DNA from: Octopus sinensis
Taxonomy: Eukaryota
Length of the DNA: 64,000 bases
NCBI RefSeq assembly: GCF_006345805.1
Contig: NC_042999.1
Coordinates: 49,662,001 to 49,726,000, forward strand
Direction of reading: 5' to 3'
Shown here: positions 52,525 through 53,598 of the stretch, in pieces
Position numbering within the stretch: the stretch's first letter is position 1
Layout: the number at the start of each line of letters is the position of its first letter
Translations under genes and position numbers: made by a program
The notes under the pieces: model-generated
What the model saw: only the letters and a program-made list of their open reading frames with translations
What the model was told of the DNA's origin: nothing
The model's database searches: none

Positions 52525-53598
52525 AATTAAATAATAAGGGTAGAAATTGATATTAATCAACTAAAGCCAGAGGCTTATCATATTTAAAAAATCTGAAGAT
52601 TAAAAATTGTGTTGCATACAAAATTAAGAGGAATGACCACTAAAGTGGATACCCTATATGCTAAACCTAGATGTCAAATCGCCATTACCATGAAGAATGT
52701 GTTCTTAAGAAAAATCTGAACAAAATGCAAAAATGTAAAAATAAGCAAAACAAATGAAAATACACGAAATAAAAAATGATTACCTATGTACCAGTGGTTT
52801 CACTTGTTAATATCTACATATGTAAGCATGCAGATATCTGTAAGATCGTCAACATAGTCTGTCACTTACAAAACACAATTTCCAGAACTAGATACAGAAT
52901 GCTCAACCAAAATCGAGTATGTATAAAGTTCTAAAAATTATGTTTGGGTGTATTTTTCAAATGTCTTCACTTTGGTATGCTGAGGCCGGAAATTACTCAA
53001 CAGTTAATAAATTTCAGCAGCCAATTTACTGGTTAGTGAATATTTTTTTATTTCAAATTAAATAAGTGTAGAAACTGATATTGATCAATTTTAATCTTCA
53101 GATTTTTAAAATATCCTAAGCCACTGGTTTTAATTGATTAATATCAATTTCTACCCTTGATACTTAATTTTAAATTTAAAAAATGTTCTCTAACTGATAA
53201 ACTGGCAGCTGAAATTTATTAACTGCAGAGTAATTTCCGGCCTCAGCACGCCAAAGTGAAGACATTTGAAAAATACACCCAAACATAATTTGTAGAACTT
53301 TATACATACTCGATTTTGGTTGATCGTTCTGGAAATTGTGTTTTGTAAGTGACAGACTACATTGACAATCTTGCAGATATCTGCGTGCTTACATACGTGG
53401 ATATTAACAAATGAAACCAATGGTACATAGGTAATCGTTTTTTATTTTGTATATTTTCATTTGTCTTGCTCATTTTTACATTTTGGCGTTTTGCTGAGAT
53501 TTTTCTTGAGAACACATTCTTCATGGTAATGGCGATTTGATGTCTATGTTTAGCATATAGGGTGTCCACTTTAGTGGTCATTCCTCTTAATTTTGTAT
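52525..53598. mobile_element. Fold-back element: ~530-bp terminally redundant unit plus inverted second copy, each with a hammerhead-like motif (family H4, PLE pLTR-like)
   Basis: A(52525-52610)-B(52615-53050)-partial A(53056-53088), then reverse-complement A(53085-53170) and B(53175-53598); motifs at 52784-52857 (-) and 53357-53430 (+). Confidence 0.7.
52784..52857 (-). ncRNA. Type I hammerhead-ribozyme-like motif (C3U variant, long stem II, GUA site)
   Basis: CTATG TTGACGA [44-nt stem II region] GAA ACCA C TGGT A CATAG; stem I CUAUG/CAUAG is perfect. Confidence 0.6.

Follow-up and report, generated by a model that had tools for sequence, protein, structure and literature searches.

A head-to-head, hammerhead-bearing repeat in Octopus sinensis, probably an old insertion of a protein-less Penelope-like element

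Introduction

What kind of genetic element lays down two copies of itself head to head, with a hammerhead motif in each? The question is raised by positions 52525 to 53598 of the window analysed here, a stretch of 64,000 nucleotides from Octopus sinensis (NCBI RefSeq assembly GCF_006345805.1, contig NC_042999.1, positions 49,662,001 to 49,726,000 of the forward strand). A preliminary description made from the letters alone read the element as A-B-partial A followed by an inverted B-A, the second a circular permutation of the first, and took it for a non-coding, ribozyme-processed retroelement with a monomer of ~530 nt.

Penelope-like elements (PLEs) are known to insert as partial tandems with an inverted, 5'-truncated copy and a tail of 30-40 bp at one end (PMC8557442, PMC3846280), and PLE remnants have been described in which paired hammerheads lie 100-700 bp apart on opposite strands (PMC4209133). 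Thirty-one recently active Penelope-like families are reported for O. vulgaris (PMC13282606). Here we ask whether the locus is best read as an insertion of this kind, as a retrozyme, as the end of an autonomous PLE or as the outcome of an event at the DNA level.

Results

Two permuted arms meet at an offset junction

The element consists of two head-to-head arms that are 88% identical, each holding about one 519-bp unit and a type I hammerhead motif on its own strand (Table 1). Three pairs of segments match in inverted orientation (52616-52888 with 53326-53598, 52895-53062 with 53164-53331 and 52525-52605 with 53089-53169), and the longest block aligned between the arms by BLAST is identical at 416 of 474 positions, which bears out the A-B-partial A/inverted B-A layout. 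In the sense of the hammerheads, the arms meet by their 5' ends at the junction, and their 3' ends face the TA-rich microsatellite that flanks the element on either side. BLAST found no further copies within the 64-kb window.

The start of the left arm recurs 531 bp on. Because this span includes a 12-bp insertion confined to the left arm, the unit is 519 bp long and not ~530 as originally estimated. The axis of symmetry has likewise shifted: it had been placed at a 10-bp palindrome (53080-53089), but that palindrome hinges on one base unlike the other two copies of A, and we rejected it as a fold-back axis in favour of an offset junction with a 5-nt overlap.

Table 1. Features of the element and its flanks (positions in the window; segment names follow the hammerhead sense)
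Feature	Position	Strand	Description
Left flank	52487..52524		TA/GA microsatellite, likely target
Left arm	52525..53090	-	5'-truncated end of A, then B, then tail; ~1.07 units, partial tandem
91-bp extension (tail)	52525..52615	-	at this end only; family copies recurrently stop at its outer edge, with (TA)n following
Left segment B	52616..53062	-	pLTR-like, carries the hammerhead; 52616 is the other place where family copies recurrently stop, with (TA)n following
Type I hammerhead, left	52784..52857	-	helix I 5/5 pairs, core U3..G8, 44-nt helix II region, palindromic helix III
12-bp insertion	52889..52900		present in the left arm, absent from the right
Terminal redundancy	53055..53090	-	repeat of 52524-52562 with a 3-nt deletion
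Inversion junction	53086..53090		5-nt overlap common to both arms (microhomology), within the palindrome 53080-53089
Right arm	53086..53598	+	A then B; 513 bp, the unit minus 6 nt; tail-less family end
Type I hammerhead, right	53357..53430	+	core U3..A8, helix I 3/5 pairs, both core-proximal pairs lost
Right flank	53599..53900		long TA/CA microsatellite, likely target

Of 502 aligned positions, 45 differ between the arms, which are therefore neither an assembly artefact, which we ruled out on this ground, nor young. Transitions make up 31 of the differences, and 14 lie at CpG sites, so that the CpG decay invoked earlier fits those 14 of the 45 and not the remainder.

Long inverted arms with shared variants (see below) and a microhomology junction could in principle have been made at the DNA level, by a fold-back or MITE-like element or by a local inverted duplication produced in repair, the hammerhead likeness being incidental; the lack of a hammerhead match in Rfam would suit such an origin. 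Against it, the arms are offset and permuted and are not terminal repeats, both outer ends of the insertion coincide with recurring ends of a repeat family, and the hammerhead motif passes a shuffle test and is better formed in the family majority than at the locus. We regard a DNA-level origin as very improbable. A MITE or fold-back DNA transposon in the strict sense, with equal TIRs and a TSD, was rejected, the arms being permuted and offset by 91 bp. Fixed ends with TIRs and a TSD had also been named beforehand as a sign against a retroelement, and no TSD is readable in the microsatellite flanks; the TSD is often unreadable in published PLE cases as well (PMC8557442).

Adjoining the element on the left, at 52237-52473, is a separate MITE-like element with 46-bp terminal inverted repeats that are 87% alike. 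Its high summed depth and opposite-strand joints in the contigs described below point to a multi-copy palindromic family.

The hammerheads are degenerate at this locus

Both arms contain the hammerhead parts that had been claimed for them, with predicted cuts between 52789 and 52788 in the left arm and between 53425 and 53426 in the right. In Rfam, neither the window nor the element matched a hammerhead; what came back was noise from low complexity and hairpins. A descriptor that we had loosened to fit the motif, admitting U3 and a long helix II, matched a single time across the two strands of the whole window, in the left arm; it missed the right arm because only three of five helix I pairs are left there. 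Applied to dinucleotide shuffles of one monomer, the loose descriptor matched 26 of 3000, and none of 3000 once helix II had to be at least as stable as -8 kcal/mol. A core with U3 and A8 is a described natural variant (PMC4209133); our literature search found no paper on the effect of C3U/G8A. The helix I proposed as ancestral, CUACG/CGUAG, went unconfirmed, being absent among the 40 of 179 family variants that were listed, and the left helix I is fully paired.

Helix III is a palindrome. Prediction gives -8.2 kcal/mol for a dimer duplex and no folded hairpin for the monomer, and cleavage of hammerheads as dimers has been described (PMC6765202). The two motifs lie 500 bp apart on opposite strands. 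With one hammerhead per strand, a monomer cannot be released at this locus, and the monomer processing envisaged here by the preliminary description is not supported. A read-through RNA of the element is predicted to have 930 of 1074 bases paired in a duplex, with 68-70 of the 74 bases of a hammerhead predicted to pair with the other arm. Degenerate, present once per strand and by this prediction buried in a duplex of ~500 bp, the hammerhead is likely to be dead at this locus. Such a read-through duplex would also be a possible substrate for A-to-I editing.

Directly after helix I lies a splice-donor-like AG/GTAAT, and the tail contains an acceptor-like T-rich CAG (52783-52593, minus strand). 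Together the pair would define a putative intron of 191 nt across the repeat end, like the 5' introns of PLEs; no splice skip corresponding to it appeared among the contig joints listed.

The unit belongs to an abundant family with recurring ends

Contigs of four of 24 listed public runs were mapped onto the left arm and its flank at 80% likeness. The single-copy flank had a contig depth of 44 in run X1 and 54 in run X3. Relative to this flank, summed depth falls from the 3' end to the 5' end from about 2500 through 730 and 360 to 140 in X1, and from about 2850 through 570 and 380 to 150 in X3, figures that are not copy numbers, convey an order of magnitude and a gradient only, and may be unevenly lowered by the divergence of the left arm. 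At the 5' end of B the sum is about 145 times that of the flank, and ~5% of the depth at the 3' end reaches the B-to-A join. Very roughly, these contigs indicate a family of 10^3 copies.

Within the unit, the strongest of the best-supported 24 of 1073 loose ends fall before 52525 (21 contigs in run X1 and 29 in run X3), before 52533 (15 and 20) and before 52616 (27 in X1), and all run on into (TA)n. These two recurring family ends, at 52525-52533 and at 52616, are the outer ends of the left and right arm. Since the best-supported ends recur at the two outer ends of this very insertion, the ends of the family look fixed and not randomly permuted, contrary to the permutation from a circle that had been suggested. 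A 9-nt T-rich motif occurs at 53163-53171 and 53586-53594 on the plus strand and at 52628-52620 on the minus strand. It precedes the 52616 end and the right-arm counterpart of the 52525 end, which suggests that end and tail are cued by sequence.

Joints from B back to A were found in other copies, at least seven in X1 and at least five in X3 among 12 of 30 joints, going back by 509-522; one of the X1 joints lies at 53008 with 37 letters between. Because these joints recur in other copies, the closed unit is a trait of the family. Opposite-strand joints elsewhere inside the unit numbered three among 15 of 49. No same-strand array of two hammerheads was seen in the contig pieces listed, which are too short to show one, and none of these pieces spans the junction of the present locus.

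From the 40 variants listed, 37 were used, three being left out as belonging to the neighbouring element, and in 31 of the 37 the majority differs in X1 and X3 alike. The majority core of the family is the canonical CUGACGA, with C3 in 98-100% of the summed depth in all four runs, so that U3 is a change common to both arms and not a family trait. Helix II, predicted at -12.2 kcal/mol at the locus, becomes longer and reaches -18.6 kcal/mol with the family majority. Eight of the 31 majority differences are common to both arms, 21 are confined to the left arm and two have no corresponding letter in the right. Shared differences at 52826, 52852 and 52942 are non-CpG changes against a majority of at least 97%, and these three favour a single template for both arms, which we consider likely; gene conversion or a minor subfamily could have produced the shared variants instead.

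Run X15, from organism E, has high cover over A and the first 40 bp of B, far lower cover over most of B, and its own majority letters; it likely represents a sister family sharing the tail. Run X13 yielded 282 family contigs; its type (RNA) was guessed, which makes it uninformative on transcription. A 25-nt family pattern had no matches in metagenome contigs and none in prokaryote genome contigs.

No protein-coding sequence was found in the element

None of 48 frames around the element reached the cutoff of any Pfam family. The best frame, with stops read as X, had no match in Pfam and matched none of 1.84 billion proteins at E 0.001, and we consider an ORF remnant in the element unproven. 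An ORF for a reverse transcriptase with a GIY-YIG nuclease is thus absent from the element in both Pfam and protein searches; the element is not an autonomous PLE. Among 217 other frames of the window there were three mariner-type matches and nothing else. Remnants of a Mos1-type mariner transposase lie at 43330-44370 (minus strand, split by one stop) and at 12363-12851 (minus strand). The window also contains, at 19900-21800, a 1.9-kb block of TA/TATG microsatellite whose GC skew is strong and which is the source of spurious mir-297 matches in Rfam.

The arms might nevertheless be the 5'-truncated ends of an autonomous PLE that has this unit in tandem within its 3' region, or whose ORF end decayed within the unit, there being then no separate non-autonomous family. 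The strong drop in cover towards the 5' end is what such truncation would leave, and the presence of segment A with far less cover of B in organism E hints at related families. By eye, the frame at 53178-53204 bears a slight likeness to the end of the Hydra nucleases given in the supplement of PMC8557442. That frame, however, has no match in our searches, and two residues of the motif, the second Cys and the Glu, are missing from it. Moreover, none of the best 24 of 1073 loose ends shows B leading into long unrelated sequence, and the listed joints return to A. On balance, we think it quite unlikely that the arms are autonomous-PLE ends.

Discussion

What was observed directly is the pair of arms, the recurrence of two ends in (TA)n, the closure of the unit, the canonical core of the family and the drop in cover from 3' to 5'. 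The explanation that we favour, at a probability of roughly 0.65, is one old insertion of a protein-less, non-autonomous PLE that was copied by the enzymes of an autonomous partner, probably of the Hydra clade. The preliminary description thus stands in so far as it saw a non-coding, hammerhead-bearing retroelement of the PLE or retrozyme type with a closed unit, and gives way on permutation and on monomer processing at the locus.

Several features argue for PLE-type insertion. Like the EN+ PLEs of Arkhipova et al. (2013, PMC3846280), the element combines a partial tandem (pLTR) with a head-to-head, inverted 5'-truncated copy, has a palindrome or overlap at the junction, and ends at a fixed 3' position, to which a tail may be added on one side. 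It differs from them in the length of that tail (91 bp as against 30-40 bp), in having no readable TSD and in having no ORF between its repeats. A type I hammerhead in the terminal repeat, degenerate at the locus and canonical in the family, also fits PLEs. There are also likenesses to Hydra-clade PLEs (PMC8557442): these, too, have a type I hammerhead near the 3' end and insert into (TA)n in almost all families. Two traits of the element's hammerhead, the U·U from which helix II starts and the short palindromic helix III (4 bp, 1-nt loop), are by our count of File S2 found in 14 and 16 of 25 Hydra families, respectively. The helix III listed for Hydra-1_Obim is that of the right arm, and the core of Hydra-2_Ajap is that of the 519-bp family; by eye, the end given for Hydra-1_Obim has no evident DNA likeness to the unit. 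Unlike Hydra-clade PLEs, which are marked by RT/EN motifs (RWK, DKT and a CxCX5C linker, with no CCHH), the element has no ORF and forms a closed 519-bp unit, and its 44-nt helix II region contrasts with their helix II stems of 3-7 bp. The excess length of the tail and of helix II over what is described for PLEs and listed for Hydra families counts against our explanation. Moreover, the Hydra-style features, judged by eye, are not exclusive to the clade, and the clade label is soft because the U·U is also found in the axolotl retrozyme HHR_Amex2 (PMC7229834) and (TA)n is also a target of Naiads (PMC8557442).

An origin from Naiads themselves, suggested by the 'HHR_half_core' of Naiad_Ovul, was considered and rejected. 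Neither inspection by eye nor a motif search revealed a likeness to Octopus Naiad ends, and whereas Naiads are marked by the lack of a canonical hammerhead, the element has a full one. Three of four short motifs were absent from the PMC8557442 supplement, and the fourth matched unrelated sequence.

The most serious competitor is a classical non-LTR retrozyme, whose tandem arrays would be transcribed, cut by successive hammerheads into monomers of ~519 nt, circularised and re-inserted in permuted form through rolling reverse transcription. Like the element, the metazoan non-LTR retrozymes of Cervera and de la Pena (2020, PMC7229834) are non-coding and low in GC, measure a few hundred bases per unit and carry a type I hammerhead; one of them, HHR_Amex2, has the U·U as well, and an origin from PLE pLTRs is proposed for them. 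The unit here is likewise a closed one, of 519 bp, in which the B-A and A-B joins both recur; the left arm is longer than one unit, and the family core is canonical. Units of 51 to 972 bp tied to PLE pLTRs are described for retrozymes of vertebrates and other animals (bioRxiv 10.64898/2026.07.22.740005, Li et al. 2026), and the argument of this preprint that animal retrozymes are non-autonomous PLE derivatives makes the gap between the PLE and retrozyme readings smaller. What speaks against a classical retrozyme is that the best-supported ends lie at two fixed places without permutation, that copies are mostly truncated and few of them, to judge from depth, extend to the B-to-A join, that same-strand tandem hammerheads were not seen in the short contig pieces, and that the locus has a single hammerhead per strand where a two-hammerhead retrozyme would have both on one. 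We therefore hold this alternative to be unlikely, and continue with the insertion of a non-autonomous PLE.

How might such an insertion have come about? The GIY-YIG nuclease of a PLE would cut a (TA)n site, where tandem, more-than-unit RNA of the family would then be reverse-transcribed. One arm would be extended past unit length, giving the partial tandem, while the second arm would be laid down inverted and joined through the 5-nt microhomology, with the 91-bp tail left on one side as described for PLEs. In the family, the hammerhead would serve to trim tandem precursors, probably as a dimer, and mobilisation would occur in trans by a PLE, probably of Hydra type. No autonomous partner was found or linked in our analysis. 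That C3U is common to both arms hints that a weakened ribozyme is perhaps no bar to mobilisation, a hint that comes from one locus only.

Insertions of this kind are themselves known; the present one, likely of a non-autonomous element that is new, stands apart by the 44-nt helix II, the 91-bp tail and the closed unit. A literature search turned up no paper title or abstract start pointing to the 519-bp family, which may already be catalogued, for example in the O. vulgaris library on Zenodo. The significance of the finding is modest: it adds an abundant repeat family bearing a hammerhead that Rfam misses. Hammerhead descriptors with short spacers of 7-17 nt (PMC8557442) would miss its ribozyme as well.

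A more far-reaching interpretation, which we consider rather unlikely, is that the family is a high-copy, protein-free replicon of 519 nt, on which a long-helix hammerhead unseen by Rfam still acts. After cleavage it would circularise, and a Hydra-clade PLE would insert it with fixed ends and the 91-bp tail. If this were true, the replicon would be a minimal substrate by which a retrozyme of invertebrates is tied to a single PLE clade, and how PLE tails and inversions arise would become testable. Were a partner and an RNA to come to light, the closed unit with two fixed ends would provide a compact model for the tails and inversions of PLEs, and likewise for the proposed PLE origin of retrozymes.
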